Positions 7,501 to 24,641 of a stretch of DNA of 52,830 nucleotides are shown in pieces. The notes under the pieces are model-generated. The model was not told the DNA's origin and did not search any database. It saw only the letters and a list, made by a program, of their open reading frames with translations. A program made the position numbers and the translations under genes. The stretch's first letter is position 1; each line of letters begins with the position of its first letter. Source of the DNA: an uncultured Gemmatimonadota bacterium (GTDB lineage Bacteria; GCA-2686955); assembly GCA_964490075.1 (NCBI GenBank), contig CAZBBK010000038.1:1-52830 (forward strand). The letters run 5' to 3'.

Positions 7501-7503
7501 GCC

Positions 7504-8892: not shown

Positions 8893-9425
8893 GCTGGAGA
8901 GCGTGGACCTGTGATTTGAAGGACGACCAGCTGAACACGCTGGTGGCAAGCGCGGCCTCCCCCGGCCAGTTCTCGACTGGAGCGGCAATCGGGTTCTTCG
9001 AGGGACCGACGCATTGCATCTTCGACCAGGCCCAGTCGGCTCCCCCATCCCACCAGCTCTGGTCCCAGCGGATCTTCGGCGAGCGGGGCGAGCTGGCGGC
9101 GCGGCGGCTCGACCACGAACGGGAAAGACCCTGGCGCGTGCGCTGGATCAGCACCAGCGAGCCCCCGAAGGCAGAGCACTGGAGCCATCCGGTGGAGCTG
9201 GGCGATCCCGACACCAGCCGGGCGCCCCTCTTCGGACGGGGCACGCCGCGGGGAGAGCTGCGTGAGGACCGATTCCGCGCCGCGTTGCCGGCGGGCGGAG
9301 CGCCGATCGCCGAGGGGACCGAGCTCTTCCTCGAGTGTGCCCGGCACCCCGCTCCGGGGGGCGCGTTGCTGCGTTGGAACAAAGTTGTCGCGTCGCATCA
9401 AGAGAAGGTTGGGAGCAATGGCTAG
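8889..9425 (+). CDS. csx19: Csx19-like type III-D subunit
   Basis: ATG 8889 overlaps the upstream TGA. ~178 aa, in the canonical position between double Cas7 and Cas7-insert; RIFGERGEL and LFG motifs. Confidence 0.7.
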   Translation: MSWRAWTCDLKDDQLNTLVASAASPGQFSTGAAIGFFEGPTHCIFDQAQSAPPSHQLWSQRIFGERGELAARRLDHERERPWRVRWISTSEPPKAEHWSHPVELGDPDTSRAPLFGRGTPRGELREDRFRAALPAGGAPIAEGTELFLECARHPAPGGALLRWNKVVASHQEKVGSNG

Positions 9426-11808
9426 AACGCACCGCAATGGGCAGCGAAGGAACAACCGCCCCCAGCGCCCGCGCGCGATCCGGCCCTTCGTCCACCCCTA
9501 CAACTTCATCCCGCTCCCCGAGCAGGGCCTCGGCGAGGCCGCGGAAGAGACCCCTTTCGCCCGCGCCCCCTTCCCCACCCATGCGCGCTACCTGAGCGGT
9601 CGCCATAGCGGCACCTTGACCTGCTCGCTGACGCTCGAGACGCACGCCTTTATCCCTCATCCACGCAAATGCGTGGCGAGCGAAGAGAACAACAAGGAAC
9701 ACAAAGAGCTCGGCTACTTCACCCTCGACCCGGTCGGCGAATGGGATCCGAACACCGACGACACAGTTCCGGCGCTGCCGGCCGGCAGTCTGCGCGGCAT
9801 GGTGCGCTCCACCTTCGAGACGCTGACCCTCTCCTGCTTCTCGGTCTTCGATGGCGGGCGACTCGACTACCGGCTCGGGCGAGATCCCTCGAGCCGCGGC
9901 GGCGCTCGTTATCTGCCGGCACGGGTCGTCGAGCTGAAGCGTGAAGATGGCAGCTTCGAATGCAAGGTGGAGCTGCTCGAGGGGCGGAGCGCGGCTGACC
10001 GGGCGCGAAAAGTGCTTCCTGTAGCTTTGCTCTATGCATACAACGAAAGAGTGAGGTTCAAGGACCGCGACTGGCGATGGACCACGGGAAGACAGACGAA
10101 GCTCTTTCGTGGGATCACCGCGAGGAACGGCGAACCGGTCGCGGTCGCCCTGGGCGCAATGACACGCGCCAGAAAGGGCTACCAATACCGGCCGGTCGAA
10201 GATCTCGAACCCGCAGGCGATCACGCCAAACTGCACACCGCCGGATGCCGCCCCCGCGACATCCGCTTCGGGTACCTGGTGGTCACCGGCCCCAACATCG
10301 AGAACAAGCACCATGAGCGGGTCTTCTTCGATGCCGACGCCACGTGCAACACCGATTTCCAAATGTCGCCAGAAGACAGATACCAGGCGTTCCTCTCGGC
10401 CAGACCAACGACCACCAAGGTCGGCGCCCGAATCGTGGAGGAGGCCGATCAGATGCTCGCCGGCTACGCCGATCGCCACGAGAAGGACCTGAAAAGAGCC
10501 CAGAGGGCCCCGCGCAGGATCTCCAACGGCAAGCCACCCCACCTGAGCGATTTCGTCGGCGCCAAGAAGCTGCGCGAGGACGATCTGGTCTACGCCTTGA
10601 TCGACGGCAACGGCACAATACAAGGCATCTACCCGGTCGCGATCCCGCGCATGACCCATCCCCAGGGGCGCGGCGATCTGCTGCACGAGGACTTCCACAA
10701 GTGTCGCGAACCGGAAGAGCTGTGCGCCGCCTGCCGGGTCTTCGGCTGGGTCCGCGGCGACGAGGTCGGGCGCAAGCACGAGCGGGACCAGGATCGCGAC
10801 GATGCCGTGCGCGGCCACGTTCGCTTCAGCCATGGACTGCTCCAGGGCGCCTGGGGTGACCGGCCGGAGCGCCAATCGATCCGTTGCGAGCTGCCGATCC
10901 TCGGCAGTCCCAAGCCGACGACCACCGGCTTCTATCTGCGGGAGCGAAAAGGCGTCGCCAACGCCCGCAAGAGACGCTGGCCGCAAGCCTGCAACGCCCC
11001 CGGCGCCTTCCCGCCCGGTCATCCCATGTATCGTGCGGAGGAGAGTCGGCTGCGAGGCCGCAAGCACTACCGCCGGCGTGAGAAGATCGATCCCGGAAGC
11101 AACGATCCAACCCGGGACGGCCTGCGCCGTCCCGAGGGCGAGCCTGACAGCCAGAGCAGAACCGTCCACCTCCTGCCGCCGAGGCTCCAGTTCCGCTTCC
11201 ACGTCCATTTCGACAACCTGAGCGGCCAGGAGCTCGGTGCCTTGCTGCAGTCGCTGGAGCTCGCCGAGAATGACGCGGCGGGCTGGCGCGCTCCGGCCGA
11301 AGGAGGATTCCGGCACGCCCTCGGCGCGGGCAAGCCGCTCGGCATGGGGGCGTGCCGCGTGCAGGTGCGGGAGATGCGCATCCATCACCGAGCAGAGAAT
11401 CCCAGTGCTCGCTACAAGGTCGCGCCCTGGGGCGAGGGCGACGTCGAGCCTCCCGAGAAGCCAACGATCTCCGATCTTCGGAAGGAGCTCTTCGATGCCT
11501 GGTCGGCCGCGGAGAGGAAGTCCCCCGACCTGGGGGCAACCCGCGCCGCCTTCTGCGAGCTCTACGCGGCCACTCCACCGAACGCGCCGATCCACTACCC
11601 GCCCAATCCCATGGGGCGGTTCGACAAGAACTTCGAGTGGTTCGTGCAGAACAAGCGGGGGCGGAGGGAGCGCGTCGACGGCGATTGGGTCACGCACGGG
11701 GGCCTGTCTCGTTCCCTCGCAACCCCGACCGAAGAGCGCGAGGAAGAAGCGAAGCGGCTGCCGGTCGACCCGGTCGAAGAGCGCGCGGCCACTCGACGGG
11801 GGAGGTGA
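9418..11808 (+). CDS. cas7: Cas7 with large insertion (TIGR03986-like RAMP)
   Basis: FVHPYNFIPL, LPAGSLRGMVRSTFETLT, KHHERVF, LCAACRVFG, ILGSPKPT, LRGRKHY, LGAGKPLGMG. Confidence 0.9.
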   Translation: MARTHRNGQRRNNRPQRPRAIRPFVHPYNFIPLPEQGLGEAAEETPFARAPFPTHARYLSGRHSGTLTCSLTLETHAFIPHPRKCVASEENNKEHKELGYFTLDPVGEWDPNTDDTVPALPAGSLRGMVRSTFETLTLSCFSVFDGGRLDYRLGRDPSSRGGARYLPARVVELKREDGSFECKVELLEGRSAADRARKVLPVALLYAYNERVRFKDRDWRWTTGRQTKLFRGITARNGEPVAVALGAMTRARKGYQYRPVEDLEPAGDHAKLHTAGCRPRDIRFGYLVVTGPNIENKHHERVFFDADATCNTDFQMSPEDRYQAFLSARPTTTKVGARIVEEADQMLAGYADRHEKDLKRAQRAPRRISNGKPPHLSDFVGAKKLREDDLVYALIDGNGTIQGIYPVAIPRMTHPQGRGDLLHEDFHKCREPEELCAACRVFGWVRGDEVGRKHERDQDRDDAVRGHVRFSHGLLQGAWGDRPERQSIRCELPILGSPKPTTTGFYLRERKGVANARKRRWPQACNAPGAFPPGHPMYRAEESRLRGRKHYRRREKIDPGSNDPTRDGLRRPEGEPDSQSRTVHLLPPRLQFRFHVHFDNLSGQELGALLQSLELAENDAAGWRAPAEGGFRHALGAGKPLGMGACRVQVREMRIHHRAENPSARYKVAPWGEGDVEPPEKPTISDLRKELFDAWSAAERKSPDLGATRAAFCELYAATPPNAPIHYPPNPMGRFDKNFEWFVQNKRGRRERVDGDWVTHGGLSRSLATPTEEREEEAKRLPVDPVEERAATRRGR

Positions 11809-13718
11809 TGGTGAAACAGTTGCTGCTCATGAGTGTGGGTCCGGTACAGGATTTCATCGCGACCGCCCGCACCTGTCAGGATCTCTGGTTCGGCTCCCGG
11901 CTGCTGAGCGACCTCTCCGAGACGGTCGCCCGATGCGCCGAATCCGAGACCGGATCGCCCGCGCTGATCTTCCCCGCGGATCTGACCCACGAAAGACCGG
12001 CGGTGGCGAACAAAGTGCTTATCGAGGTGGACGAAGGCTCGGCGGAATCGGTGGCGCAGGCATGTGAAGAGGCGCTCGGGGAACGCTTCGCGGAGATCGG
12101 GGAGCGGACGCTCTCGAAAGTGCGTCGTGAGCACCTGCTGGAGGATGTCGCTCGATCCCAGCTCATCGGGCTTCGCGAGTTCGACTGGACCGCGGTCGAG
12201 ATCTCCGGATCGTACGAAGATGCCAGACTCGCGGCCGAAAGTTGGCTGGCGGCCACCAAGAACGCGCGGCCCTGGTCCCAACCCGCCTGGCCGACGGCCA
12301 CGTCCGGCGGCGAAGGCATTCCCAAGTGTTCCATTTGCGGTGCCCGCGAATCGGTGCTGCGGGAAGACGCCTTCGACCTGGCCGCGGACGAGCTGTGGCG
12401 CGGATACCGGGCGGGAGAGGGCGAACGCCTCTGCGGGGTGGATCTGGTCAAGCGCTGGGGAGTCGACCCGAGCGTCGGGGATGCGCTCTTCGGCGATCGG
12501 CGACCCGTCTTTCACTCCACCTCGCATGTCGCTTCCGCGCCGCTCCTGGCGCGGATCGACGACTCCGCCCCGGCCGCGGTCGGCCGCTACCTCGGCGAGC
12601 TGGAGGTTCTCGGGCTCGACATCGATCTGCTGCGGATCAGGGTCCCGGGCGCGTCTCACGTCGAGCTTGGCGATCCTCTGCGCGGCGACAGGAGTCTGCG
12701 CGTTCCGCTCGCCGCCGCCCTCGATGCCCCAGCGCGACGCGGAATCGATGGTCGCATCTTCTACGAAGGGCAGCTCCGAGCCATGCTGCGGGAGGAGCGG
12801 ACCGAGATCGCGCCACCCTTCGAGGAAGGCGACGTCGAGAAGGCGCGGCAGGCGCTGGCGGCGGTGCTGGGTGAGCTCGAAGTGACCGAGCCCTTCCCCT
12901 ACTACGCATTCCTGCTCGCCGACGGCGACAAGATGGGGCAGGCGATCGAGACGATGGGGGAGGCCGATCGCCACCGCGCGCTCAGCGCACGACTCGAGGT
13001 CTTCTCGCGCACGACCCGCGACATCTTCGCGGGCCACCAGGGGAGCCTGATCTACGCCGGCGGTGACGACGTTCTGGGACTCGTGCCGGTGCATACCGCA
13101 CTGCAGTGCGCGACCGAGCTCAAGGATCGATTCGAGACCGAGCTCGCGCCGGTTTTCGAGGCCGGCGAGGAGCGCCCGACCCTCAGCGTCGGCCTCGCCT
13201 TCGTTCACCACCTGGAACCGATGACCCGGGCGCGCGCCCTGGCCAGGCGCGCCGAGGATCTGGCCAAGCGCGGCCCCGACGGCACGCCGGCGCGGGCGCA
13301 ACGCAACGCCCTCGGAATCGTCTACAGCCCGAGGAGCGGGGGCGAAATCAGCTGGAGATCTCAGTGGGGAGAAGGCGATCGATTGTGTCGCGGGTTGTGG
13401 GCCTGGGCGCGCCGCTATCTCGACGGCAGTCTGCCGCACGGCGCGCCCTTCGAGCTGGAGAACGCCCTCGCGCCTCTCCGCCTGGGGGACTCCTCGGAGA
13501 CCGACGACGCAGTGGTCCGCGGTCTCGCGCGGCGGGTTCTGGGGCGCCGTCGCGATGCCGGGGATGCGCCGATCGACACGACCGCATTCGAGGATCGTAT
13601 CGACGATCTCGAGGCCATTCAGTCACTGATCAGCGAGCTGCTCGTAGCGCGCCTGATGGCCCGTGCCTACGCGCAGGCGTGGGGCCCGCTGGAGACCGAC
13701 GAGGAGGATGGCGAGTGA
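11808..13718 (+). CDS. cmr2: Type III-B Cas10/Cmr2 (HD-less)
   Basis: SVGPVQDFIATARTCQDLWFGSRLLS, KCSICG, YYAFLLADGDKMG, IYAGGDD (GGDD 13059-13070). ATG overlaps the upstream TGA after GGAGG. Confidence 0.95.
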   Translation: MVKQLLLMSVGPVQDFIATARTCQDLWFGSRLLSDLSETVARCAESETGSPALIFPADLTHERPAVANKVLIEVDEGSAESVAQACEEALGERFAEIGERTLSKVRREHLLEDVARSQLIGLREFDWTAVEISGSYEDARLAAESWLAATKNARPWSQPAWPTATSGGEGIPKCSICGARESVLREDAFDLAADELWRGYRAGEGERLCGVDLVKRWGVDPSVGDALFGDRRPVFHSTSHVASAPLLARIDDSAPAAVGRYLGELEVLGLDIDLLRIRVPGASHVELGDPLRGDRSLRVPLAAALDAPARRGIDGRIFYEGQLRAMLREERTEIAPPFEEGDVEKARQALAAVLGELEVTEPFPYYAFLLADGDKMGQAIETMGEADRHRALSARLEVFSRTTRDIFAGHQGSLIYAGGDDVLGLVPVHTALQCATELKDRFETELAPVFEAGEERPTLSVGLAFVHHLEPMTRARALARRAEDLAKRGPDGTPARAQRNALGIVYSPRSGGEISWRSQWGEGDRLCRGLWAWARRYLDGSLPHGAPFELENALAPLRLGDSSETDDAVVRGLARRVLGRRRDAGDAPIDTTAFEDRIDDLEAIQSLISELLVARLMARAYAQAWGPLETDEEDGE

Positions 13719-14800
13719 CACTCTGGATCGCCGAGCCCCGAGACACGCTCGTGGTTCGTGACGGACGCCGTGAGTTCTCGGGCATGGGTCCGATGCGCTC
13801 GGTCGCCCTTCCCTGGCCGTCGACCACGGCCGGTTTCGTTCGCACCCGCGTCGGGCGCGACGAATCCGGGCGCTTTCGGTCGACCGTGGCCGAGGCGCGG
13901 GCGATCGAGGTGACCGGCGCCTGGCTGGCGCGTCTCGATGGCGAGGGCGAGGTCGATCAGTGGCTCTTTCCCGCCCCCCGCGACGCGCTCTGGGGCGCGG
14001 CGAAGAGCGGCACCCAGATGCGCCATCGTCTCGCGCCGGAGCCGGTTCCCGGCGGCATCACGACCAGCTGCAGGCTGCCGATGCTGCCTCGGCCACGCAC
14101 CGAGCTCCCGGCCGGAAAACCGACGCCGGGCCCGGCGTTCTGGACCGGCGCGGAGCTGGCCGACTGGCTCGCCGATCCCACGGATGCCGCGGCGGTCGGC
14201 AGCTTCGGTCACGACGCCCTGCACGACGAAACCCGCATTCACGTCTCGATCGAGGCGCAAACCAGGACGGCAAAGGAAGGCGCTCTCTTCGGTGAGGTCG
14301 GCCTGCGCTTCGTGACACCCGAACGCCGTCGTCTGGCGGTCGGCTTCCGCTGTGATCACGCCGGCCTGCGCGGCGGCGCGGGAACGCTGGGGGGAGAGCG
14401 GCGTGTATCGTATCTAAGACAGACTTCCAGGCGCCTGCCGGCACTGCCCCAAGCGTTCCCCGGAGATCTGGTCCGCGTCGTCCTGCTGACCCCGGCCATC
14501 TTCGCGGATGGCTACCTGCCGGCGAGCGGAGCGCTCTCCGGAACCGCGGTGGTCGCCGCCTGTGTCGGCCGCCCCGAGCCGATCTCCGGCTGGTCCTTCG
14601 AGACGATCCGGGACGCCGAGGGGAAGCGCGTGCAGAAGGGGCCGAAGCCGGTGCGCTGGATGGCCCCGGCCGGCAGCGTCTACTGGGTGAAGCCCGCCGA
14701 TCCCGTATCCTGGGCGGCCCGGCATCACCTCCAATGCGTCTCCGACGACACACAGGACCGCAAGGACGGTTTCGGCCTCGCGGCCGCGGGAGTGGGCTGA
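13715..14800 (+). CDS. cmr3: Cmr3 (Cas5 group)
   Basis: EPRDTLVVRDGR, LPWPSTTAG, TLGGERR, LLTPAIF, PAGSVYW, DGFG; GTG overlaps the cmr2 stop. Confidence 0.93.
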   Translation: MTLWIAEPRDTLVVRDGRREFSGMGPMRSVALPWPSTTAGFVRTRVGRDESGRFRSTVAEARAIEVTGAWLARLDGEGEVDQWLFPAPRDALWGAAKSGTQMRHRLAPEPVPGGITTSCRLPMLPRPRTELPAGKPTPGPAFWTGAELADWLADPTDAAAVGSFGHDALHDETRIHVSIEAQTRTAKEGALFGEVGLRFVTPERRRLAVGFRCDHAGLRGGAGTLGGERRVSYLRQTSRRLPALPQAFPGDLVRVVLLTPAIFADGYLPASGALSGTAVVAACVGRPEPISGWSFETIRDAEGKRVQKGPKPVRWMAPAGSVYWVKPADPVSWAARHHLQCVSDDTQDRKDGFGLAAAGVG

Positions 14801-15963
14801 TGCGGCGGACCAACGAGACACCGCGGAAGATGATCCGGCGCGACGGTCGGCCGTTGAAGCGACGCTTCGAAGTGATCTCTCCGGTGCATGACGGGGGCGT
14901 GGCCGCGGCAGGCGAGGCCGATCCCGTCACACCGGTGAGAACAGCGGCGATCCGTGGCCAGCTACGCTTCTGGTGGCGAGCCACCTGCGGCGTGGAGCGC
15001 GAAAGTGTCGCGGATATGCTGGCCGCGGAGACGCGGATCTGGGGCGCCGCCAGCAGCCCCGGCGCGGTCGCGCTCGCGATCACGGAACAGCCGGTCGCCA
15101 AGACGATGGAGCTGCCGGGCATCGGCGAGCCTCTCGGCTACGGCGGTTTCGGGTTGCGCACCTCGGCCGGGAAGCTCGGGATGTTCGAGGGAGAGTGCCA
15201 GCTGGTGCTGAGTGGCCCCGGGCTGGCGGACGCGGGAATCCGCGCGGAGGTGGAACGGGCGCTCGACGCGTGGTTGACTTTCGGAGGCATCGGCGGCCGC
15301 ACCCGGCGGGGTTTTGGCGCCGTCGCGTCGGCCGAGGGAGAATGCGATCCGGAAGAGACACTGAGGCGCCTGCGGCCGGGCTCGACGCTGCCCGACACGC
15401 CGAGCCTGAGTGGAGCACGGCTGGTGCTGGCGCCGGGCCGCAGCAGCACCGGGCGGGCGGCGCAGCAGAAGGCTCTGAAGCTGATGATGGACTTCCGCCA
15501 GAAGCCGGGATTGGCGCGCCGGGAAGGCGGGAAGCGCCCGGGGCGGAGCTTCTGGCCGGAAGCCGACGCCATCCGCCGCATCGCCGATAACCACAAGAAA
15601 GGACATGAGCCGGAGCACCCGGTCCACCAGAAAGCCCCCCGCGCCGAGTTCGGGCTTCCGCTCATCATCCAGTTCAAAGACAAGGACCGAGGAGATCCAC
15701 GGCAGCACGAGATCAAGCCGAAGGACTCGGAGCGGCTGGCGTCGCCGATTCTGCTTCGCCCGATCCGCATCAAGAAGAACAGCTACCGGGCGGCGGCCCT
15801 GCTCCTGGACGGCATCCGCGCCCGCGACCTCGCCCTGGAGACGAAGGGGGCGGGCCTCGAGGCCGGGCTCACGGAAGCCGAAGCCGCCCAGATCCGCCCT
15901 CTCGCCGGCAACGCCGATCCCCTGGACGCTTTCCTTGACTTCTTCTCACGTGGAGGCACTTGA
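14800..15963 (+). CDS. cmr1: Cmr1
   Basis: AIRGQLRFWWRA, FGGIGGRTRRGFG, PRAEFGLP, RLASPILLRP. Confidence 0.93.
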   Translation: MRRTNETPRKMIRRDGRPLKRRFEVISPVHDGGVAAAGEADPVTPVRTAAIRGQLRFWWRATCGVERESVADMLAAETRIWGAASSPGAVALAITEQPVAKTMELPGIGEPLGYGGFGLRTSAGKLGMFEGECQLVLSGPGLADAGIRAEVERALDAWLTFGGIGGRTRRGFGAVASAEGECDPEETLRRLRPGSTLPDTPSLSGARLVLAPGRSSTGRAAQQKALKLMMDFRQKPGLARREGGKRPGRSFWPEADAIRRIADNHKKGHEPEHPVHQKAPRAEFGLPLIIQFKDKDRGDPRQHEIKPKDSERLASPILLRPIRIKKNSYRAAALLLDGIRARDLALETKGAGLEAGLTEAEAAQIRPLAGNADPLDAFLDFFSRGGT

Positions 15964-16841
15964 TGAATCTCCGATTGATGTTCGTTCACGCCCTCTCGCC
16001 GCTGCACGCCGGAACCGGGCAGTCGGTGGGGGCCATCGATCTCGCCATCGCCAGAGATCGCGCCACCTCGTTCCCGTACCTGCCGGGCAGCTCGATCAAG
16101 GGATCGCTGCGGGATCGCGCCGGCGGCGCCAACGACGAAGTCATGGTCTTCGGTCCCCCTACGCAGAAGGCCCATGAGCACGCCGGCGCGCTGATCGTCG
16201 GCGACGCCAACCTGCTCCTTCTTCCGGTCCGGTCGGTGCGCGGAACCTACGCGTGGGCGACCTCGCCGTACCTGCTAGCTCGCTACGCTCGCGACGCCGT
16301 GGAGGCTGGCCTGAGCCCGCCCCAGGTGCCGAAGGTCGAGTCGATCGACCGGGGCCTCGTCGCCGGCGGCACTTCGTTGGCGGACAATCAAAATCGGATC
16401 ATCCTCGAAGATCTCGATTTCAAGGTCACGGCGGGCGACCAGGCAAATCAGTGGGCGGAGCACATCGCGAAGCTGCTCTTCCCCGGAAAAGCAGGAAAAG
16501 ACGATCCGTGGCCGGAGCTCTTGAAGAAACGCTTCTGCATCCTGCACGACGACACCATGGTCTTCCTGGCCCGTCATGCGACCGATGTGGTGGCGCGGAT
16601 CTCCATCGAAAACGACACCAAGACGGTCAAGAAGGGTGGGCTCTGGTATGAGGAGAGCCTGCCGGTCGAGACCATCCTGGTGGCGCTGATGGCAGCACAG
16701 GAGATCCCCGCGTCGAATGCAACCGCTACCGACGTGCTGAGGGCACTCGAGGGCTACAGCCGGGAGCCGCTGCAGCTGGGCGGAAACGCCACGGTTGGCC
16801 GGGGGCGCTGCCGCCTGGTGCTGGCGCGGGGGAACAACTGA
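15963..16841 (+). CDS. cmr4: Cmr4
   Basis: HALSPLHAGTGQSVGAIDLAIARD, PGSSIKG, GLWYEESLP, QLGGNATVGRG. Confidence 0.96.
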   Translation: MNLRLMFVHALSPLHAGTGQSVGAIDLAIARDRATSFPYLPGSSIKGSLRDRAGGANDEVMVFGPPTQKAHEHAGALIVGDANLLLLPVRSVRGTYAWATSPYLLARYARDAVEAGLSPPQVPKVESIDRGLVAGGTSLADNQNRIILEDLDFKVTAGDQANQWAEHIAKLLFPGKAGKDDPWPELLKKRFCILHDDTMVFLARHATDVVARISIENDTKTVKKGGLWYEESLPVETILVALMAAQEIPASNATATDVLRALEGYSREPLQLGGNATVGRGRCRLVLARGNN

Positions 16842-17215
16842 TGGCTACACGGCAACAACGATGGTCCAGCAAGGCGCTCGCCTGCGTCGAGGAGCGCCAG
16901 GCGGAGGGGCAAGCCAAGGACTTCGCGATCTCCAAGTACAAGACGCGCTGTCTCTCCACCCCCTCTCTCGTGCAACAGGCCGGCGTGGTTCAGGCGCTCG
17001 CCTTCATCATCTCGCGGGACCAAACCGGGCGCGACTTCGCCGACGATCTGGCCCAGACCTACGGCTTGAAGGACCGCGACGAGCTACTCAGGAAGGCCCA
17101 GAATGGTGGTCTCGGCGAGTACATGACACTGTCGGCCGACCTCATCTCGGTGGCGACATGGTTCCGGCGCTTCGCGCAATCGGAGCTCACGGCGGTCGAA
17201 GAGGACGACTCGTGA
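16841..17215 (+). CDS. cmr5: Cmr5 (small subunit)
   Basis: 124 aa helical protein between cmr4 and cmr6; TRQQRW, PSLVQQAGVVQALAF, WFRRFA. Confidence 0.9.
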   Translation: MATRQQRWSSKALACVEERQAEGQAKDFAISKYKTRCLSTPSLVQQAGVVQALAFIISRDQTGRDFADDLAQTYGLKDRDELLRKAQNGGLGEYMTLSADLISVATWFRRFAQSELTAVEEDDS

Positions 17216-18564
17216 GATCCCGCCGAAGCGCCCTGGGTGGCGTCAAACCCACGGCCGATACGCACCGCGGCCTGTGGCTCGACCGTTTCCTGACCGAGCA
17301 GAGAAACGCCGATGGCTCCTCATCCGACGACACCAAGAGCGCGCGCCAGAACCTGATCGAGAGCTGCGAGGACCACCCCGCGCCCGACGGATATGGCCAG
17401 GCGCACCGGCGCTGGAAGAGCTCTTTCGGCGACGACGCAACGCTCGCTCTGGCGACCGCGCGGGGCCGCATCGCTCTCGGCCTCGGCCAGGCCACGCCCC
17501 TGGAGGTGGGGCTGACGCTCGACCACACCTGGGGAGTGCCGAAGCTGCCCGGCACGGCCCTCAAAGGCCTCGCGGCCGCCGCCGCCCGCCATCTGCTCGG
17601 CTCTCCCGAGTGGGACGTCGGCGGCGAAAGCTACGACACCCTCTTCGGGACCACCGAACAGGCCGGAGTCGTGGACTTCATGGATGCCTGGTGGGAGCCG
17701 TCGGATGATGGGGCGAGCACCCCCATCCACCTCGACGTCATGACGGTTCATCACGGCGACTACTACGCCCGCGCCGGGAAGACCGGCGAGACGCCGCCGC
17801 CGCTCGACACCGACAAGCCCAATCCGGTCTCTTTCGCCAGCGTCAGCGGGAGCTACCTCGTGGTGGTTCGGGGACCGGCCGAATGGCGCGAGGCGGCGCT
17901 CGCCCTGCTCTGGATCGGCCTGAAAGAGCTCGGGATCGGAGCCAAGACCAACGCCGGCTACGGCCGAATGAGCCTCGATGCGAGCAACTCCTTGATCGAC
18001 GGGCTTCGCACGCAAGAGGAGCAGGCCGAAAAGCAGCGCAAGGAAGAGGAAGAAGAGCGGCGCAAACAGATCGAGGAGCAGCTCGCGGAGAAGGCCAAGA
18101 AGGCAGAAGCCGACGCCCGGGAGAGGCAGCGCATACGGGATCTTGCCAAGCTCGGGCACGAAAACTGCGGACACCTGATGCCCAGGCTCCTGGAGACCGA
18201 ATCCGAGGAGCTCAGGAAGAAGGTGCTGCTACACGCCCGGGAGCTCGGACTCGAGTTCGTGAGGGGCCGCGAAGAGAAGGGCCTGCCCTGGGCCAAGGCA
18301 GTGATGGATGCATGGCCTGAGGAGGAACGTCCCAAACCGGCCCCCGTGGATCAGGAGCTGGCGAAAGTCCAATCGGCGGGAGAAGACGCCGAAGAGCTTC
18401 GCCGGCTCAAACAGCAATGCATGGAGGCGGAGGGCTGGTCGCCGGATGCCCGGGCCGCCCTGCTGGGCGCGCTCAAGAAGAAGTTCGGAGGCCGGCGGGT
18501 GAATCCCAAGAACAAGAGGCACTATACCGAGTTCAACGACTGGTACAAGAGCCAGAAGCGGTGA
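17212..18564 (+). CDS. cmr6: Cmr6 with long charged C-terminal extension
   Basis: EVGLTLDHTWGVPKLPGTALKG, DVMTVHH..YY, GIGAKTNAGYG, followed by a ~190-aa E/K/R-rich tail. Confidence 0.92.
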   Translation: MRSRRSALGGVKPTADTHRGLWLDRFLTEQRNADGSSSDDTKSARQNLIESCEDHPAPDGYGQAHRRWKSSFGDDATLALATARGRIALGLGQATPLEVGLTLDHTWGVPKLPGTALKGLAAAAARHLLGSPEWDVGGESYDTLFGTTEQAGVVDFMDAWWEPSDDGASTPIHLDVMTVHHGDYYARAGKTGETPPPLDTDKPNPVSFASVSGSYLVVVRGPAEWREAALALLWIGLKELGIGAKTNAGYGRMSLDASNSLIDGLRTQEEQAEKQRKEEEEERRKQIEEQLAEKAKKAEADARERQRIRDLAKLGHENCGHLMPRLLETESEELRKKVLLHARELGLEFVRGREEKGLPWAKAVMDAWPEEERPKPAPVDQELAKVQSAGEDAEELRRLKQQCMEAEGWSPDARAALLGALKKKFGGRRVNPKNKRHYTEFNDWYKSQKR

Positions 18565-18653
18565 AGCTCGGCCTCGACGGGCCGGCTTGAGCAGCGCCCA
18601 ATCGCACCCACTCCCCCACACGCACACCACGCTCGAGCTACCCTGCCCCCAGG

Positions 18654-20675
18654 ATGCCCCGCCCCACCCCACCCGTCGACCCCGCCGACCTCGACCTCTA
18701 CGCCCTGCTGGATCGTGTGCTGCACGCGGTTAGCACGCCGACGAGGCTCGAGATGCTGCGCGCCGGCCAAAAGCTCGGTCTGCTGATCGAGGTCCTGCTC
18801 GGGCATCCGCCGATCCGCGGTCGCAGCCGCCCGCGCGACTTCCCTTTCGCCCCCCACCAGGACGAAGCCCTCGAGATCGCGCGCCGACTGGCGGGCCGGG
18901 AGGTCTCGAGCGACAACATCAGGCGGGGGGGGCCGAGCTACAACCTCTACGATTGGCTCGTCGCCTGCGCCCTGCTCGGCTGTGGCGACGACGACGAGAA
19001 GCGCTGCCAAGACCGGATCTTCTATCTGCTGCAGCACTTGGAGCAGACACTCGGACTGCGGCGGAGCCTGTTTCGGGAACAGATCTGGGATCTCCTCGGG
19101 CTGTTCGACGCCCCGAACAGCCGCGATCGGGGAGAGGTGTTCACCGAGACCACCAAGACCGCGGTGGTGGCGGCGCTCCTGGCGCGCCATGCCGGCTTCG
19201 ACCAGAGCAGCGATCAGCTGATCGACGAGCTCTGGGATGACAAGAAAGCACGCCGCTTCGTCCGCAATCAGCGCGACCGCCTGCGCGCGACCCGGCGTTG
19301 GCGGATCGACCTCAAGGCGGCCGGAGTCCAGGATTTCCTCGACGCATGTCGCCTGGTCTTCATTCGTCGCGGCGCCAGCACTTGGTCCGCGCAGACTCTG
19401 GCGCTGCTGCGCGACGACATCGCCTGGGGGCCGCTCGGGCACTGGCCCTTCAAGACCCGCCCCCGGCTCCTGATCGACTCCAACTCCGTGGTCAGCTTCT
19501 GGACCGAAAGCGCGGTCGCCGGCGAGGAGCTGGCGGCGGGAGTGCGCGATGCACTGGACCGAGCGCTCCAGGGATCAGAGGGCAGCGCGGTGGGGCTCGA
19601 CAAGCGATATCCACTCCTGATGCCGTACCGGCGGGAAGCCTGGGAGATGTACGAGACACATCTCGGGGCCCCCGAGCGTTGCCTTGCGGAGTTGGGCACG
19701 GTGTTTCCTGACGTGAAAGTCCAGGCCCTTCCGATGTCGTTGGAACGACTCGCGATGCAGCGAGCTCGCTACCAACCGGAATACGAGGGCCACGACAACA
19801 GCTGGCGGACGGTCCGCTGCTTCGGGGGTACCGCAAGGTCGGTCGAGAGCGGTTCGACGCCGGACTGCAAGGGAAGACCGGGCGATCCAGCCCTGGCGTC
19901 TAGAATTCCCCCCTGGTACAAACGCAATCCGAGCTCCGACGAAAGCTACGGATGGGCGGCCTTCGCCTACTCCCTGGTCGGCCGGATCTACCGCCGAACC
20001 GCCGAGCGGGGGCTCGCGAGCATCGCTTTCCCCGACCGCAAAGACGGGCGCCTGCGCGACCTCAACGCCGCGCGCCGGCTGCGGGCAATCGACCGCAAGC
20101 TGGGCGGTGAGGGGCGCCTGGCTCTTTTGAAGCTGGACGGCGATCGCGTCGGAAAGGGCTTCGTAGAAAGACCGATGCTGCGGGCGCCGGCGCTCAGTGT
20201 CGGCATCGAGTCGGTGATGCTGGAGCGAGTGCAACGAGCAGTCCACACGATCTGCGCGGAGCATCGCGCGGATCTGGAAGGAGGGCTGCCGCTCGACCTG
20301 ATCTACTTCGGCGGCGACGACCTGGAGCTGCGCGTTCCTGCGCTCCTGGTAGAGACTCTGCTCGAGGATTTCGCGACTCCACTGCCCACCGATCGCACGG
20401 CGCTCGGAGAGCTCTCGATCACCTGGTCGGCAGCCGCGATCGAGCTCGAATGCGCAACGGAACCCGGCGTACCGGCCGAGGAGATCGTGGCGGCGAGGAG
20501 AATCGGCGAGCTGCTCGAGCTGGCGAAGGCGCGCAGCCCTCTACGGGGCCGGCGGCAGGATGTGACGCCAACGATCGACGGATTGACCGGCGTGGTGGAA
20601 TGGTCGCCACGCCAACATCATGAGCGCCTCTTCGGAATGCGCGCTCGGATCGGAAAGGCGACGGCCGAACCATGA
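18654..20675 (+). CDS. Divergent Cas10-like GGDD polymerase/cyclase
   Basis: DLKAAGVQDFL...IRRGAS (Palm1-like), LALLKLDGDRVGKGF and LIYFGGDD (GGDD 20310-20321; Palm2), ITWSAAA. The N-terminal ~210 aa is unassigned. Confidence 0.75.
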   Translation: MPRPTPPVDPADLDLYALLDRVLHAVSTPTRLEMLRAGQKLGLLIEVLLGHPPIRGRSRPRDFPFAPHQDEALEIARRLAGREVSSDNIRRGGPSYNLYDWLVACALLGCGDDDEKRCQDRIFYLLQHLEQTLGLRRSLFREQIWDLLGLFDAPNSRDRGEVFTETTKTAVVAALLARHAGFDQSSDQLIDELWDDKKARRFVRNQRDRLRATRRWRIDLKAAGVQDFLDACRLVFIRRGASTWSAQTLALLRDDIAWGPLGHWPFKTRPRLLIDSNSVVSFWTESAVAGEELAAGVRDALDRALQGSEGSAVGLDKRYPLLMPYRREAWEMYETHLGAPERCLAELGTVFPDVKVQALPMSLERLAMQRARYQPEYEGHDNSWRTVRCFGGTARSVESGSTPDCKGRPGDPALASRIPPWYKRNPSSDESYGWAAFAYSLVGRIYRRTAERGLASIAFPDRKDGRLRDLNAARRLRAIDRKLGGEGRLALLKLDGDRVGKGFVERPMLRAPALSVGIESVMLERVQRAVHTICAEHRADLEGGLPLDLIYFGGDDLELRVPALLVETLLEDFATPLPTDRTALGELSITWSAAAIELECATEPGVPAEEIVAARRIGELLELAKARSPLRGRRQDVTPTIDGLTGVVEWSPRQHHERLFGMRARIGKATAEP

Positions 20676-22174
20676 AGACCGCAATGATCGTTCTAGCCAG
20701 CGAGCAGCTCTGGCCCAACCTGAGCGGGCTCGTGCACTGGCACGAAAACGAGGGCGGTGTCGACGCCCTGTTCATCTACCACACCGGCGACGAGAGACGA
20801 TCCGAGGCGCCGGCCGGGCGCCTGAAGCGGCTCTGTAGAGCGGTCTACCCGGAGATCGAGGTCATCCTGCCCGAGAAGCCGTGTGGCATCGTACCGAGCG
20901 CGGTTCGGGCGCAGATTGGGAGCTGGCGGACCGGGCGTGGCGACGAGTGGCGGTGGGTCATCAACGCGACCGGAGGTGTCAAGTTGATGTTCGAGGGCGC
21001 CATGGCGTTCTGCTCGGAGGAGCGTTGCCAGGTGATCTATCGGGAGCTTTCCGGGCAGTGGTTCGAGCTGACGCGGACCACAGAGTTAGGGCATGTCGAG
21101 GCGGTCGAGATCGAGATCGATCCTGGAGTGACTGACGACGTCGAGGTCGACAGACTGATCGAGATGCAGTCCGACGCGCCGGCAGGGATGCGGTGGAATA
21201 CGGCCAGGCCACGCCGGCTGCCGGTGGATCGCATCACCGAGACGGGCATAAGCAACGATTGGAACTGGGAGAAAGCGTTCCGGTCGGCCGGTATCGATCC
21301 CAGGGGGCGCCAGGGCGGACTGCTCTTCGAGGAGTACGTGGCTGCGGCATTGCGCCTGCTCGACGTGACCAACTGCAAGATCAACGCGGAGCTGCAGGGT
21401 GCGGTCGGCCAGGGCGCCCAGGCCGTCAGCGAGACCGACATCGTCGCCAACGCCGGCGGCCGCTTGCTGATGATCGACTGCAAGCTGCGCGAGGCCGATC
21501 AGGCCGGCGACACTCCATTGACCGATCAGATCAGCCGTGCGGCGAACTTGCAGCGTAGAATGGGCGGCTTGAGCGCGGCCTGTGCCCTGGTGCGGCCCAA
21601 TCGGGAGTTTAGCGACCTGCACCGCCGCTATGCCGAGAGCGCCAGATTGACGGTCATCGACCGCGGCCAGGCCCCGAGCTTCTTCAGCGCCTTGGCGAAG
21701 TTCGTCGGCAGGAGGAACCCCGACGATCTGCCGCCAGAGCTGGCCGACGCGCAGGCCCGCCTGAACCGTGCGCACCGAGAGGGGAAGCTGATCTTCGGAC
21801 GAATGAGCGCGGCCGCGCAGCTCGATCCGAAGCAGGCGAAGCAACTCGAGGAGGATGGGTTCCTGAACCTGATGCGCGCGGCCGATGCGACCATGGCGGA
21901 GCTCGAACAGGACTGGTTCTGCCACTCTTGGCGCGGGCGCTGGCACCTCTACTGGCAACCATCAGCGGCGGTCGATTCCAGCGATCCGCCTCGTGCGGTG
22001 TTGGAGAACATGCTCCGGAAAGAGCTGGGAAGAGCATGGGAGATCGGGGCCGAGCCCTCCAAGAAAGGCGCCTCCTGCTACGCCTCGATCATGCCGCGGC
22101 CAGGCTGCAAGGAGCCCGCTGCCGGAATCCGCCGCTTCCTCGAAAGCCGACGCGGCAAAACGCTCCTCCCCTGA
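20672..22174 (+). CDS. CARF + PD-(D/E)xK nuclease (Card1/Can2, DUF1887-like)
   Basis: CARF: IVLASEQLWPNL, INATGGVKLM. Nuclease: GLLFEEYV...ETDIV...LLMIDCK. ATGA-coupled to the upstream gene. Confidence 0.85.
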   Translation: MKTAMIVLASEQLWPNLSGLVHWHENEGGVDALFIYHTGDERRSEAPAGRLKRLCRAVYPEIEVILPEKPCGIVPSAVRAQIGSWRTGRGDEWRWVINATGGVKLMFEGAMAFCSEERCQVIYRELSGQWFELTRTTELGHVEAVEIEIDPGVTDDVEVDRLIEMQSDAPAGMRWNTARPRRLPVDRITETGISNDWNWEKAFRSAGIDPRGRQGGLLFEEYVAAALRLLDVTNCKINAELQGAVGQGAQAVSETDIVANAGGRLLMIDCKLREADQAGDTPLTDQISRAANLQRRMGGLSAACALVRPNREFSDLHRRYAESARLTVIDRGQAPSFFSALAKFVGRRNPDDLPPELADAQARLNRAHREGKLIFGRMSAAAQLDPKQAKQLEEDGFLNLMRAADATMAELEQDWFCHSWRGRWHLYWQPSAAVDSSDPPRAVLENMLRKELGRAWEIGAEPSKKGASCYASIMPRPGCKEPAAGIRRFLESRRGKTLLP

Positions 22175-22205
22175 GCCGCCCCGCCCCGGCCCCGTCCGCC
22201 GCCAC

Positions 22206-22739
22206 TCAAGATACCGCCTCGATCACCCCCTGCGTACGCCGGCCGTCCTTCAGAAGCGCGACCCGATCCCCCGCGGCCTTGCCGGCCAGGGCCGCCCCCA
22301 GGGGGGCCGCGCGGCTCACGAACAAGACCGGACCGCGCGCTGAGTCGACCGGCTCGGAGTCGCCGACCGGCGACACGAAGTAGTGTCTCCAGATCGGCGA
22401 ACCGGCGGAGTCGCCGTCCTCCAGCGCCACGGTCACCAGCGCACCGACCTTCACGCACTCCAGCTCGCGACGTAGATTCGGCGCGCTTTCCAGGTAGTCG
22501 CGGAGCAGCGCCAGATTCTGGCGCAGCTCGGCCACGCGCCTGGCCTGTCCGGCCGCCAGATTCTGCGCCTCTTCCTTGAAGGTGTCGTAGCGGGACTGCA
22601 TCGCGCCCTTGTGCGCATTGGCGTCGCTCTGTGCGGAGCTGCGCCCCTCCTCGGCGCGCGCCAAGCGCTCCTGGTAGCGCTCGATGAAACGAGCCATCAG
22701 CTCGGGCTTGTCGACCTGTCCCCGTCTCTCGCTGCTCAT
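22206..22739 (-). CDS. GreA/GreB-family transcription elongation factor-like protein
   Basis: Coiled coil with AMQSRYDTFKEEAQNL, then VKVGALV and VSRAAPLGAALAGKAAGD (GreA/B C-terminal motif). Confidence 0.8.
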   Translation of the reverse strand: MSSERRGQVDKPELMARFIERYQERLARAEEGRSSAQSDANAHKGAMQSRYDTFKEEAQNLAAGQARRVAELRQNLALLRDYLESAPNLRRELECVKVGALVTVALEDGDSAGSPIWRHYFVSPVGDSEPVDSARGPVLFVSRAAPLGAALAGKAAGDRVALLKDGRRTQGVIEAVS

Positions 22740-22863
22740 GTCCTCGGCTCCTCGTTCAGGATGGGTTCTCCTCTCTCATGACAGGACGCCCGGCTTCCGA
22801 GGATGTGACGGTAAAGCTCCGGCCGCGCGTCACAAGGGCAAGCTCGGGTTCGTCGTTTCGGAC

Positions 22864-23487
22864 ATGAGTAGGGAAACACACGACCCGAATCGGCGCCAGG
22901 CGCCGCGCCATCCCTTCGTCGTGATCGAGGGCGTCGACGGCACCGGCAAGAGCACCGTCGCGGAGCTTCTCGCGAACGAGCTGCGCGGTATCTACTTCCG
23001 CACTCCGTCCGGACCCTACGCAACGCTGCGCCGGTTCGTGGACAAGGGCTTCGACCCGGCCATCCGCTTCCGCTTCTACCTGGAGGCGGTCGCACACGCG
23101 AGCAGCGAGATCCGCGCATTGATCGACCACCGCCCGGTGGTCTGTGATCGCTACCTGCGCTCCACCCTGGTGTACCACCGGGCCCTGGGCGCCTGCGTCG
23201 ATCTCGAGCCTGAGCTGGAAGACGCCCTGATCATGCCCGACTTCGAGTTCGTCCTCACGGCGAGCTCCGGCGTTCGGAACGAACGTCTCGCGCGGCGCGA
23301 CGACCGGGATGCATCGGACCGTCACATCGAGATGAACTCCACGTTCCTCGACCGCGCGCAAGAGGGCTTCCTCGCCGGTGAGATCGTCGCACTCGACACC
23401 AGCCGCACCGCGCCCCGAGAGCTGGTGAAGATGATGCTCGGGCAGATCCGTCAGCCTGCCTGCGCGAACGGAAGGGCGCTGCCGTGA
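22864..23487 (+). CDS. Thymidylate/CMP kinase-like P-loop nucleotide kinase
   Basis: FVVIEGVDGTGKST Walker A; VVCDRYLRSTLVYH DRY motif; PDF...L..RNERLARR. Confidence 0.88.
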   Translation: MSRETHDPNRRQAPRHPFVVIEGVDGTGKSTVAELLANELRGIYFRTPSGPYATLRRFVDKGFDPAIRFRFYLEAVAHASSEIRALIDHRPVVCDRYLRSTLVYHRALGACVDLEPELEDALIMPDFEFVLTASSGVRNERLARRDDRDASDRHIEMNSTFLDRAQEGFLAGEIVALDTSRTAPRELVKMMLGQIRQPACANGRALP

Positions 23488-24641
23488 GCGCCCGGGACCG
23501 GCCGAGACCTCTGCCGCTGCTCGATGCGCTGCACGTCGCCCGGCTCTGGGCCGCCGCCGGTGGCGCCAGAAGGGTCGAGCTCGGAGCCCTCGAGCCGCTG
23601 CTGTGGCGTGACGGCGGGCATCGTCCGGCCGACCTGGTGCGGGCGCTGCGCGACGAGAACTTCGACGTCAGCCTGACCACCAACGGAAGCCTGCTCGGAC
23701 AGCACGCGAGCGATCTGGCCGCGGCGCGACTGTCGCTGGCCCGGGTCAGCTGGCACACTTGCGACCCGGCGCTGTTCCGAGAGATCGCCGGAATCGACTG
23801 CTACGACATGTTCCGCGAGGGCATCGACGCCGCGGCCCGCGCCCGGCTGCCGATGGCATTCAACCGTGTTCTGTTTCGCGGCCACACCGATGACCTGCCG
23901 CGCCAGCTCGACTTCGTCGAAGACCAGGGCGCCCGCCTCAAACTCTACGAGCTCATGTGGACACCGGAAATCGCGCACTGCTACTCCGACATCCACCAGA
24001 GAGTGATGCCGGTGATCGACCGCCACGTCGCTCCCAGGGCGATCGCGATCGATCGCATCGAGGATTCCATCGGACGAGCACGACTTCGCTACCGGCTTCG
24101 GCGCGGCGGCAGCGTGGAGATCAAGCTCGGAAACGAGGTCGACCGCGGCGTCGCGCCCTGCTCTCGCTGTCGCTCTCGCGGCGTCTGCGAGGAGGCATTC
24201 GGCGACTACCTTCGCGTCGAGGCGAATCTCCAGGCCTTCTTCTGCTACATGCGCAGGGATATCGGCTTCGATCTGAATCGGGTGCGCGACGCCGGCGAGC
24301 TGATCACCTCCCTGCGAGCGCACTTCGGAGAGGCGACCGAAGAGCTACTGCGCGCTTCCACCCTGCGCTACATCTTGATGCCGCGCTGCAACTTCAACTG
24401 CTACCTGCCCGGCACCAACCGCTCCTGGTGCCACAAGAGGGACGGCAACTACCGGTGGCCGCGGCGCGATGTGGCGGCCGCGCGGGTGCCGGTCGCGCAG
24501 GCCGCGACAGCTTTCCAACACGATCGTCAGGCCTCCTCCTCCTCGTCGATCGTCTCGCGAATGGCCTTGAGGCCACGGAAAACGTCCTGGCGGATGCCCG
24601 CCTCCTTGATCTTCCGTTCCCGCGGATCGGCGCCGAGATAG
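23484..24641 (+). CDS. MoaA-like radical SAM protein, apparently circularly permuted
   Basis: GALEPLL (GGEPLL variant), SLTTNGSLL, Cys cluster CSRCRSRGVCEE...FCYMRRD. The only CxxxC..C motif (LRYILMPRCNFNCYLPGTNRSWCH) lies near the C-terminus. GTG overlaps the kinase stop. Confidence 0.75.
   Translation: MSARDRPRPLPLLDALHVARLWAAAGGARRVELGALEPLLWRDGGHRPADLVRALRDENFDVSLTTNGSLLGQHASDLAAARLSLARVSWHTCDPALFREIAGIDCYDMFREGIDAAARARLPMAFNRVLFRGHTDDLPRQLDFVEDQGARLKLYELMWTPEIAHCYSDIHQRVMPVIDRHVAPRAIAIDRIEDSIGRARLRYRLRRGGSVEIKLGNEVDRGVAPCSRCRSRGVCEEAFGDYLRVEANLQAFFCYMRRDIGFDLNRVRDAGELITSLRAHFGEATEELLRASTLRYILMPRCNFNCYLPGTNRSWCHKRDGNYRWPRRDVAAARVPVAQAATAFQHDRQASSSSSIVSRMALRPRKTSWRMPASLIFRSRGSAPR

Follow-up and report, generated by a model that had tools for sequence, protein, structure and literature searches.

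A D4-less Cas10-like protein encoded together with a Card1/Can2-type CARF nuclease downstream of a type III-B module represents a conserved family and may be a cyclase that acts without crRNA

We have analyzed a 52,830-nucleotide stretch of DNA from an uncultured Gemmatimonadota bacterium (positions 1 to 52,830 of contig CAZBBK010000038.1, assembly GCA_964490075.1; G+C content 68.6%), hereafter referred to as the window. The subject of this work is an open reading frame (ORF) at positions 18654-20675 of the forward strand, which starts with ATG and codes for a Cas10-like protein of 673 amino acids, and the ORF that follows it (20672-22174, forward strand), which codes for a nuclease of 500 amino acids. 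Both lie downstream of two type III CRISPR-Cas effector modules of the same orientation. The first, a type III-D-like module (2087-11808), opens with a gene for a 1069-amino-acid Cas10 (2087-5296; Palm2 match with expectation value (E) of 1.4e-15), which is followed by Csx10-like, two Csx7 and TIGR03986 genes of the repeat-associated mysterious protein (RAMP) superfamily. The second is a complete type III-B module (11805-18564) recognized by NCBIfam and Pfam models; it comprises cmr2 (ca. 11805-13718; TIGR02577, E 1e-46), cmr3 (13715-14800), cmr1, cmr4, cmr5 and cmr6 (17212-18564). A CRISPR array read on the forward strand at positions 33-329 extends beyond the left edge of the window; four of its repeats were seen (reported length 39 nt, spacing 82-91).

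Cas10 is the signal generator in type III CRISPR-Cas and is controlled by CRISPR RNA (crRNA). Since each of the two RAMP modules of the window has a Cas10 of its own, the 673-amino-acid protein is a surplus copy, as had been stated in an earlier sequence-only reading of this locus. There are five genes with the Palm2 signature in the assembly, three in the window and one on each of two other contigs; the Cas10-like gene adds a third such gene to the window and a fifth to the assembly. It begins 89 bp (18565-18653, forward strand) after the cmr6 stop codon (TGA at 18562-18564), and its own stop codon (20673-20675) overlaps the ATG (20672-20674) of the nuclease ORF, forming an ATGA overlap. The translation contains the motifs AGVQDFL (residues 223-229), IRRGAS (237-242), LKLDGDRVG (492-500) and YFGGDD (551-556); the segment SYNLYDWLVACALL is found at residues 95-108. 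The Palm motifs, a gap of about 90 bp and the ATGA coupling had all been quoted in the sequence-only reading and can be read directly in the DNA.

On its own, the sequence of the Cas10-like protein gives a weak Cas10 signal. The Pfam Cas10-Cmr2_palm2 model (PF22335) aligns with residues 488-563 at E 0.0024 and 18.4 bits (cut-off 27), and the Cmr2 model TIGR02577 scores 17.8 bits against a threshold of 79.4; the protein stays under the thresholds of all curated Cas10 families tested (TIGR02577/TIGR02578 and PF22335). No match at E≤10 was returned when the single protein was compared with the Protein Data Bank (PDB) by phmmer. BLAST at 1e-3 revealed no match with either resident Cas10, and a recent duplication of a resident cas10 gene was rejected for this reason. 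At the level of family and structure, in contrast, the likeness to Cas10 is firm, as described below.

A word-indexed search of 5.8 billion proteins retrieved just two relatives, 47% and 42% identical to the protein from the window. A profile built from the three sequences was then used against 1.84 billion representative proteins and retrieved 103 at E≤1e-3, of which 57 were at E≤1e-30. The family thus amounts to ca. 100 clusters (at 50% identity), mostly of 620-720 amino acids and matching end to end. Conservation was counted in an alignment of 58 members. Residues G240, S242, R253, D275, P320, P352, C405, D495, G500, G554, D555 and D556 are invariant (58/58), while Q226, R239, G553 and K625 (57/58 each) and W244 are nearly so. 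The Pfam Palm2 model PF22335 matches 42 of the 58 members at E≤0.01, and the mCpol model PF18182 matches six, the 673-amino-acid protein not being among them. The family profile matched the III-D-like Cas10 of the window (E 3e-10) and gave no match with the window Cmr2. Among the clusters listed in an Atlas search with the whole protein there were only Cas10-type ones and one unnamed cluster of 805 amino acids. Source names were looked up for ten members: nine were unnamed and one was a "hypothetical protein". Judged by its sequences, this is an old, conserved and unnamed family derived from Cas10.

The structure of the Cas10-like protein was modeled by AlphaFold2 using the 58-row alignment, with a mean predicted local distance difference test score (pLDDT) of 90.2 and a predicted template-modeling score of 0.92. 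The PDB matches listed by Foldseek (ranks 1-50) were all either effector complexes of type III or Cmr2/Csm1 proteins in isolation, the best of those listed being a type III-D complex (8s9t_C, E 8e-9). In VIA, a comparison independent of Foldseek, the top match was the type III-D Cas10 of SsoCsm (8bmw_K; Z 14.2, root-mean-square deviation 4.9, 509 residues aligned), with model residues 6-669 placed on residues 1-698 of the 829-residue chain; it was followed by 8s9t_C (Z 11.8) and by Cmr2/Csm1 chains (Z 8-10). The family profile also matched the 8bmw_K sequence directly (E 1.5e-9), the alignment ending at residue 681 of 829. Diguanylate and adenylate cyclases reached Z 6-7.8 over one Palm only. 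A diguanylate cyclase was rejected because Cas10 matches dominate (Z 14.2-8.0 versus at most 7.8 on a single domain), and a decaying duplicate because the family is intact and its catalytic residues are invariant. The claim of a highly divergent Cas10 homologue thus holds: the ORF is intact, the GGDD Palm is conserved and the model has the Cas10 fold, yet the protein is no standard Cas10 of a known subtype.

The N-terminal helical domain (residues 1-213; 18654-19292, forward strand), which the sequence-only reading had left unassigned, is modeled as an HD-like fold of the Cas10 type. When folded alone, it gave a pLDDT of 88.5, and VIA aligned 175 of its residues with 8bmw_K at Z 9.8; the next match had Z 6.5, and HD phosphohydrolases scored Z 3-4.3. 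Foldseek with the isolated domain returned nothing at E≤1e-3. An N-terminal HD nuclease domain with an HD dyad is present in many, though not all, Cas10 proteins. Residues 1-213 contain no such dyad, and the sole HD of the protein, at residue 380, falls in a stretch that is less than 60% conserved in the family. What the domain conserves instead is an arginine-rich loop, G50-H51...R55-G56...R59-x-R61-D62-x-P64, in which G50 is found in 56, H51 in 46, R59 in 55, R61 in 53, D62 in 57 and P64 in 55 of the 58 members. We interpret the N-terminus, on the strength of the model, as an HD-like fold of the Cas10 type from which the HD dyad is missing.

The remainder of the chain contains both Palm domains, each covered by the VIA and Foldseek matches. 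Palm1 (residues 214-362; 19293-19739, forward strand) was delimited by the secondary structure of the model and carries the G-V-Q-x-F and R-G-A-S motifs. The pattern G[IV]Q.[FY] is also present in the III-D-like Cas10 of the window and in the Cas10 proteins of two loci elsewhere (L023 and L014), and Cmr2 has GPVQDFI. L014 was left out of the family: its product is an ordinary Cas10 with RAMP neighbors, closer to the III-D-like Cas10 of the window. Palm2 (residues 488-600; 20115-20453, forward strand) carries D495-G-D497 and G553-G-D-D556.

In canonical Cas10, a zinc finger with four cysteines lies between the Palm domains, and a C-terminal helical domain, D4, docks the Cas11 small subunits. 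In the Cas10-like protein, the place of the zinc finger is taken by a linker (residues 363-487; 19740-20114, forward strand) with two cysteines only, C389 and C405, of which C405 alone is invariant (58/58); W421 is found in 55/58 members. The protein contains no CxxC pair and so has no four-cysteine zinc site, which bears out, together with the missing dyad, the earlier statement that neither an HD motif nor an intact zinc finger is present. Model pLDDT falls to 60 in this linker, at about residues 391-400 (averaged over 10-residue blocks). The C-terminal tail (residues 601-673; 20454-20672, forward strand) is modeled as one helix and a β-hairpin. VIA alignments reach residues 669-673 of the model and stop about 130 residues before the Cas10 chains end (at 698/829, 426/555 and 467/592). 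Since the alignments end that early and only 73 residues follow Palm2, D4 has no counterpart. The model thus predicts an HD-like N-domain without the dyad, Palm1, a linker without a four-cysteine zinc site, a GGDD Palm2 and no D4.

No account of a Cas10 family with two Palms, no D4 and a place outside RAMP operons was found in the literature searched by full text. The updated CRISPR-Cas classification (PMC12669027) reports inactivated or truncated Cas10 in subtypes III-G, III-H and III-I and sets out the Crf nomenclature; the family is not described in the passages of its text that were searched.

The product of the coupled downstream gene combines an N-terminal CARF domain with a C-terminal PD-(D/E)xK nuclease domain and has an additional C-terminal region of ca. 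150 amino acids. PADLOC assigned it to CARF4--CARF_PDDEXK (E 5e-15). With the single protein, the Pfam models Card1_endonuc (E 2.4e-4) and CARF_Card1 (PF23400, E 0.036) both scored below cut-off. Twelve homologues, 33-47% identical to it, were collected, and PF23400 was found on three of them; those with names are a "hypothetical protein" from a Gemmatales metagenome-assembled genome and a "PDDEXK family nuclease" from Thermogemmata fonticola. A profile of this family matched 8z4i ("CARF-domain containing dual-activated nuclease", E 2.5e-7), Can2 (7bdv), Card1 (6wxw) and VC1899 in the PDB, with E ranging from 2.5e-7 to 2.5e-6. The CARF domain aligned with Card1 over residues 6-139 (E 8e-7) and the nuclease domain with Can2 over residues 207-298. 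In all 13 sequences, LASEQLWPN, the CARF loop NAxGGxKLM and residues E220, E254, D256, D269, K271 and Q286 are invariant. Going by its sequence, then, the 500-amino-acid protein is a CARF nuclease of the Card1/Can2 (Crf4) type with intact motifs, in agreement with the partner proposed earlier. Card1 and Can2 are activated by cyclic tetra-adenylate. An Atlas search with the C-terminal 156 residues gave no usable match.

Compared with Card1/Can2, the protein shares the arrangement of the two domains and the intact E...D...D-x-K active site; it differs in being ca. 100-130 amino acids longer, in its additional C-terminal region and in its sub-threshold Pfam scores.

The surroundings of the family were studied at 14 other loci (L001, L002, L005, L006, L007, L009, L010-L013, L028 and L031-L033); a further one, L008, has the same genes in the same order as L009. 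Forty-six flanking ORFs were checked for RAMP genes by Pfam, and picked ORFs (non-overlapping, with a lower size limit of 80-100 amino acids) were compared by BLAST with the RAMP proteins of the window; several of the relatives' contigs are only 2-8 kb long. No RAMP gene was seen among the ORFs checked in the fetched flanks of the 14 loci. The gene directly downstream of the family member varies and is effector-like: the CARF nuclease in the window, a TPR-CHAT gene in L001 and an SLFN-NACHT gene in L005. In L001, a superfamily 1 (SF1) helicase gene and a gene for a 432-amino-acid protein precede the Cas10-like gene, and in L005 the order is AIR-synthase-like, ThyA-like, Cas10-like and SLFN/AlbA-NACHT. 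L009 contains a Cas_NE0113 CARF gene, Cas_VVA1548, which we take to be Csx15, and a gene for a Card1 of 406 amino acids, all within 10 kb, while the genes of L011 include one for a CARF protein of the Cas_APE2256 family and one for a helicase of SF1. Homologues accompanied by CARF genes with no RAMP gene seen, the arrangement asked about in the sequence-only reading, are therefore found at two loci (CARF genes, Csx15-like gene and Card1). The same downstream gene, of 325-361 amino acids and no known identity, is shared by L010 and L011. In L006, a radical S-adenosylmethionine (SAM) gene and a DUF4230 gene lie on the opposite strand. The context of L002 consists of a reverse transcriptase-Cas1 fusion gene, two NYN genes, Prok-E2 and E1 genes, and then the Cas10-like gene; the E1 directly upstream, which stands together with the Prok-E2, matches E1-E2 models of the cyclic-oligonucleotide-based antiphage signaling system (CBASS) with E 4e-15, so that a CBASS-like E2 and E1 pair precedes the gene in this one locus. 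At one other locus, a ThiF-like gene is found 6 kb from the family member.

Six members carry a C-terminal HD domain of ca. 170-200 amino acids that resembles alarmone hydrolases: P0054, P0065, P0027, P0064 (the L009 protein, 9992-12424), P0072 and a fragment from L013 (2-1180). The fused domain of P0054 matched small alarmone hydrolases, Mesh1 and the RelA/SpoT hydrolase domain with E from 9e-10 to 1e-5. Four of the six have an intact HDxxED motif and one more retains the HD dyad alone (dyad in 5/6), whereas the L013 fragment has a degenerate motif. Fusion with such a domain provides independent support for a nucleotide-centered function and fits a nucleotide product.

Taken together, the constraint on the Palm pocket, the CARF nuclease partner and the fused hydrolase domains suggest that the enzyme is a nucleotide cyclase and active. 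D4, the zinc site and the HD dyad have been lost, RAMP neighbors are lacking, the effector-like genes downstream vary and a Cap2-like E2/E1 pair is found nearby in one locus, all of which points to work outside the crRNA-RAMP backbone. Placement in or near neighborhoods of type III and cyclic oligoadenylate (cOA) genes, along with co-occurrence at the genome level (see below), indicates a functional tie with type III signaling. The reading that we favor, and to which we would give an even chance, is that the 673-amino-acid protein is an ancillary cyclase, active without crRNA, which supplies the CARF nuclease with its signal and has a tie with type III signaling. Catalysis, product, trigger and the flow of the signal we infer as follows. 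A signal of the cyclic oligoadenylate type would be made from ATP in the composite pocket between Palm1 and Palm2. The Card1/Can2-type protein, to which the enzyme is translationally coupled, would bind this signal through its CARF domain, and its PD-(D/E)xK nuclease would then degrade nucleic acid and halt the infected cell. The trigger would be sensed by the enzyme itself, not by the crRNA-RAMP backbone, the N-domain with its arginine-rich loop being the candidate sensor. The type III network of the locus would in this way gain a second, crRNA-independent input.

Extension of this scheme to the family as a whole is more tentative. Its members, with the protein of the window as founding example, may possibly be Cas10-derived stand-alone sensor-cyclases that provide an innate, crRNA-independent cOA input; departure from the RAMP complex would have cost them the HD dyad, the zinc site and D4, and they would have evolved the arginine-rich sensor loop and come under CBASS-like control (E2/E1, fused HD domain), with varied effectors (CARF nuclease, CHAT, NACHT-SLFN).

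A number of observations weigh against a cyclase that works without crRNA. Genes of the RAMP family PF03787 are present in five of the six genomes that host the family. These assemblies are G000 (that of the window), G005, G006, G204, G462 and G610; G006 and G204 are the two positives among 201 relatives of G006, G005 is the sole positive among its 201 relatives, and four of 401 genomes in a phylum sample are positive (G462, G610, G006 and G204). The RAMP background, measured for the relatives of G006 (47/201) and of G005 (12/201), is 6-23%, positives included, and the host genomes are few and partly related. III-D-like RAMP operons occur in G000, G005 and G006. At L002, a III-D-like operon with its own Cas10 of 512 amino acids and an array of 57 repeats are located on the same contig ca. 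15 kb upstream. The co-occurrence with RAMP genes and the operon at L002 make some dependence on type III complexes possible, and we take the excess of RAMP genes in the host genomes as an indication against full independence from type III. At the locus itself, a consensus scan of positions 18000-23000 found no promoter-like site and no terminator-like site on the forward strand; given this and the 89-bp same-strand gap after cmr6, co-transcription with the III-B module and a role inside that operon are possible. Pairing with this family of CARF nucleases was seen only in the window, and TPR-CHAT and SLFN-NACHT lack a recognized cOA sensor domain, so that signaling to them is not evident. The neighborhood survey drew on relatives more distant than the two nearest ones (47% and 42% identical) and covered part of the flanking ORFs by Pfam. 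Finally, no RNA run is listed for the stretch; the four runs listed with it are of DNA and come from a single marine metagenome study. The interpretation given in the sequence-only reading is supported in part. The neighborhood check suggested there came down largely on the side of a crRNA-independent enzyme, no RAMP gene having been seen in the checked flanks of the 14 other loci; at the genome level, independence of CRISPR is not borne out, RAMP genes being present in five of six host genomes and two family loci being placed within type III loci.

The same facts lend some weight to an exchangeable large subunit, a protein that would dock in trans on the Cas5-type Cmr3 or Csx10 in place of Cas10 and confer crRNA-guided cOA synthesis with a different product or with resistance to an anti-CRISPR. 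We consider this unlikely. The gene does lie directly after cmr6 on the same strand, the Cas10 fold is kept from the N-domain through both Palms, and the closest relatives by sequence and structure are III-D Cas10 proteins, with III-D-like operons in three of the host genomes and RAMP genes in excess of the background. A D4-less Cas10 can, moreover, be a subunit of a complex, to judge from the account of subtype III-H in the classification passages cited above, in which a diverged Cas11 apparently stands in place of the Cas10 C-terminal domain (PMC12669027). On the other hand, the fetched flanks of the 14 other loci showed no RAMP gene; a separate Cas10 belongs to each of the RAMP operons examined in G005 and G006, and in G005 and G204 the RAMP operons are on contigs other than that of the Cas10-like gene. 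G462, with the gene, has no RAMP match at E≤1e-5, which is weak evidence because the assembly is fragmented. The protein also has no D4 for contact with Cas11, and the variable effector-like neighbors and the E2/E1 pair resemble a self-contained module. A prediction of the complex between residues 213-673 of the Cas10-like protein and Cmr3 (13715-14797) scored 0.01 against a mark of 0.32, with no controls run, and speaks neither for nor against such docking.

A pair fully independent of CRISPR would go further than the reading that we favor: the enzyme would sense infection in the manner of CBASS, the CARF nuclease would be its private effector, and co-occurrence with type III would reflect shared islands or transfer. 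The variable downstream gene (nuclease, CHAT protease, NACHT-SLFN), the Cap2-like E2 and E1 upstream in L002, the Mokosh-like SF1 helicase beside L001 and the pVip/VakA-like pair just downstream in the window are consistent with this, as is the absence of the gene from the other genomes of the window's small phylum (0/4), which is expected of mobile defense genes. We nevertheless find such complete independence doubtful, since RAMP co-occurrence exceeds the measured background, CARF, Csx15-like and Card1 neighbors are accessories typical of type III, and two of the family loci are situated within type III loci; searches of viral contigs, plasmids (two queries) and phages found no member of the family.

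That the protein is no signal synthase at all, and is instead a regulator or amplifier responding to resident cOA or a nucleotidyltransferase with another product (SAM-AMP-like conjugates, a polymer), is very improbable: the fused alarmone-hydrolase-like HD domain would also fit non-cOA nucleotide metabolism, and nucleotide-metabolism-like genes lie near three loci (thymidylate-kinase-like and radical SAM in the window, AIRS and ThyA-like in L005, radical SAM in L006), but the 673-amino-acid protein showed neither a CARF or SAVED domain nor any other domain known to sense cOA, the residues conserved in it are the ones that form the catalytic pocket of Cas10, and the coupled gene codes for a CARF receptor.

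Compared with III-D Cas10 (8bmw_K, 8s9t_C), the protein has the same fold from the N-domain through Palm1 and Palm2 and shares the G-x-Q-x-F and GGDD motifs. Unlike III-D Cas10, it lacks the HD dyad, the four-cysteine zinc site and D4, and its gene is an extra one next to complete modules, each already equipped with a Cas10, the fetched flanks of its relatives being mostly without RAMP genes.

To our knowledge, the one-domain mCpol of Panoptes is the sole Cas10-type enzyme known to act outside a RAMP complex. The 673-amino-acid protein would resemble mCpol (OptS, 9mnr_A) in this, and it resembles mCpol in Palm2, which superposes with Z 6.3 over 113 residues; mCpol, however, is a single Palm of ca. 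110-120 amino acids, whereas the 673-amino-acid protein has two Palms and an N-domain. In Panoptes, mCpol is reportedly paired with a membrane effector in an inhibitory signaling scheme, while the partner here is a CARF nuclease. As in CBASS, a putative stand-alone cyclase is placed beside a variable effector, and the E2 and E1 of L002 match CBASS E1-E2 models; in contrast to CBASS, whose CD-NTases have a fold of the Pol-beta type and not a Palm, the fold is Palm/Cas10, and the E2/E1 pair is found in one locus only. Nor do the C-termini of the family share a terminal glycine or alanine of the kind that could serve as a CD-NTase-like conjugation site. GGDEF diguanylate cyclases superpose on Palm2 with Z 6.4-7.8 over ca. 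140 residues, but the match is limited to one domain, and the 673-amino-acid protein has GGDD and a Palm1 partner in the same chain.

A conserved, D4-less, two-Palm derivative of Cas10 outside RAMP operons would imply either a guide-independent route to cOA or exchange of large subunits between complexes, and either outcome bears on the mutual evolution of adaptive (CRISPR) and innate (CBASS-like) nucleotide signaling. The pair is small (673 and 500 amino acids), so guide-free signaling of the Cas10 type can be tested directly with two genes.

Several further features of the family and its surroundings were recorded. N-terminal extensions of ca. 360-460 amino acids are found in two members (L011, 5756-9166, and L031, 3-2870). 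The L011 extension is 39% identical to the product of a separate upstream gene of 305 amino acids in L006 (3-920) and has no Pfam match. P0049, also N-terminally extended, had no sequence match in the PDB. In L001 (3-4264), the SF1 helicase matches AAA_11/AAA_12 with E of about 1e-44 and its 432-amino-acid neighbor gives a weak MkoB match; a Mokosh-like system may, on sequence, adjoin the Cas10-like gene there. A helicase related to that of L001 occurs in L011. In L002, genes of the reverse strand that converge on the Cas10-like gene (12064-21743) code for a 1219-amino-acid protein that matched no Pfam family, a MoxR-type AAA ATPase, a 534-amino-acid protein and a 1058-amino-acid protein with RNA polymerase Rpb2 domain 6 and Rpb1 domain 2; the last looks like a single-chain two-barrel RNA polymerase.

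In the type III modules, residues 149-243 of the III-D-like Cas10 of the window (2087-5296) gave a weak match to the CARF family TIGR02710 (E 1e-7, below cut-off), and its first 560 residues are devoid of an HD dyad; the protein may be a fusion of Cas10 with a CARF-like sensor. Cmr6 ends in a tail of ca. 195 amino acids (17977-18564) rich in glutamate, lysine and arginine (74 of 196 residues); a charged tail of this length is unusual for Cmr6. The Cas10 Palm2 genes on the two other contigs of the assembly have E values of 1.5e-29 (contig C50, which also has three RAMP genes) and 2.6e-27 (contig C54), and the type III effector modules of the assembly number at least three.

Downstream of the CARF nuclease gene and convergent with it, an ORF of 177 amino acids (22206-22739, reverse strand) has a weak match to the GreA/GreB C-terminal domain (E 0.013). 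Just 3′ of the nuclease gene, a thymidylate-kinase-like gene followed by a radical SAM gene occupies positions 22684-24641. The former matches the PADLOC models PDC-M51B (E 3.6e-30) and VakA (E 4.8e-16), the latter matches the radical SAM family in Pfam (E 5.8e-12) and pVip in PADLOC (E 4.4e-5), and the two together look like a defense pair of a viperin-like enzyme and a kinase.

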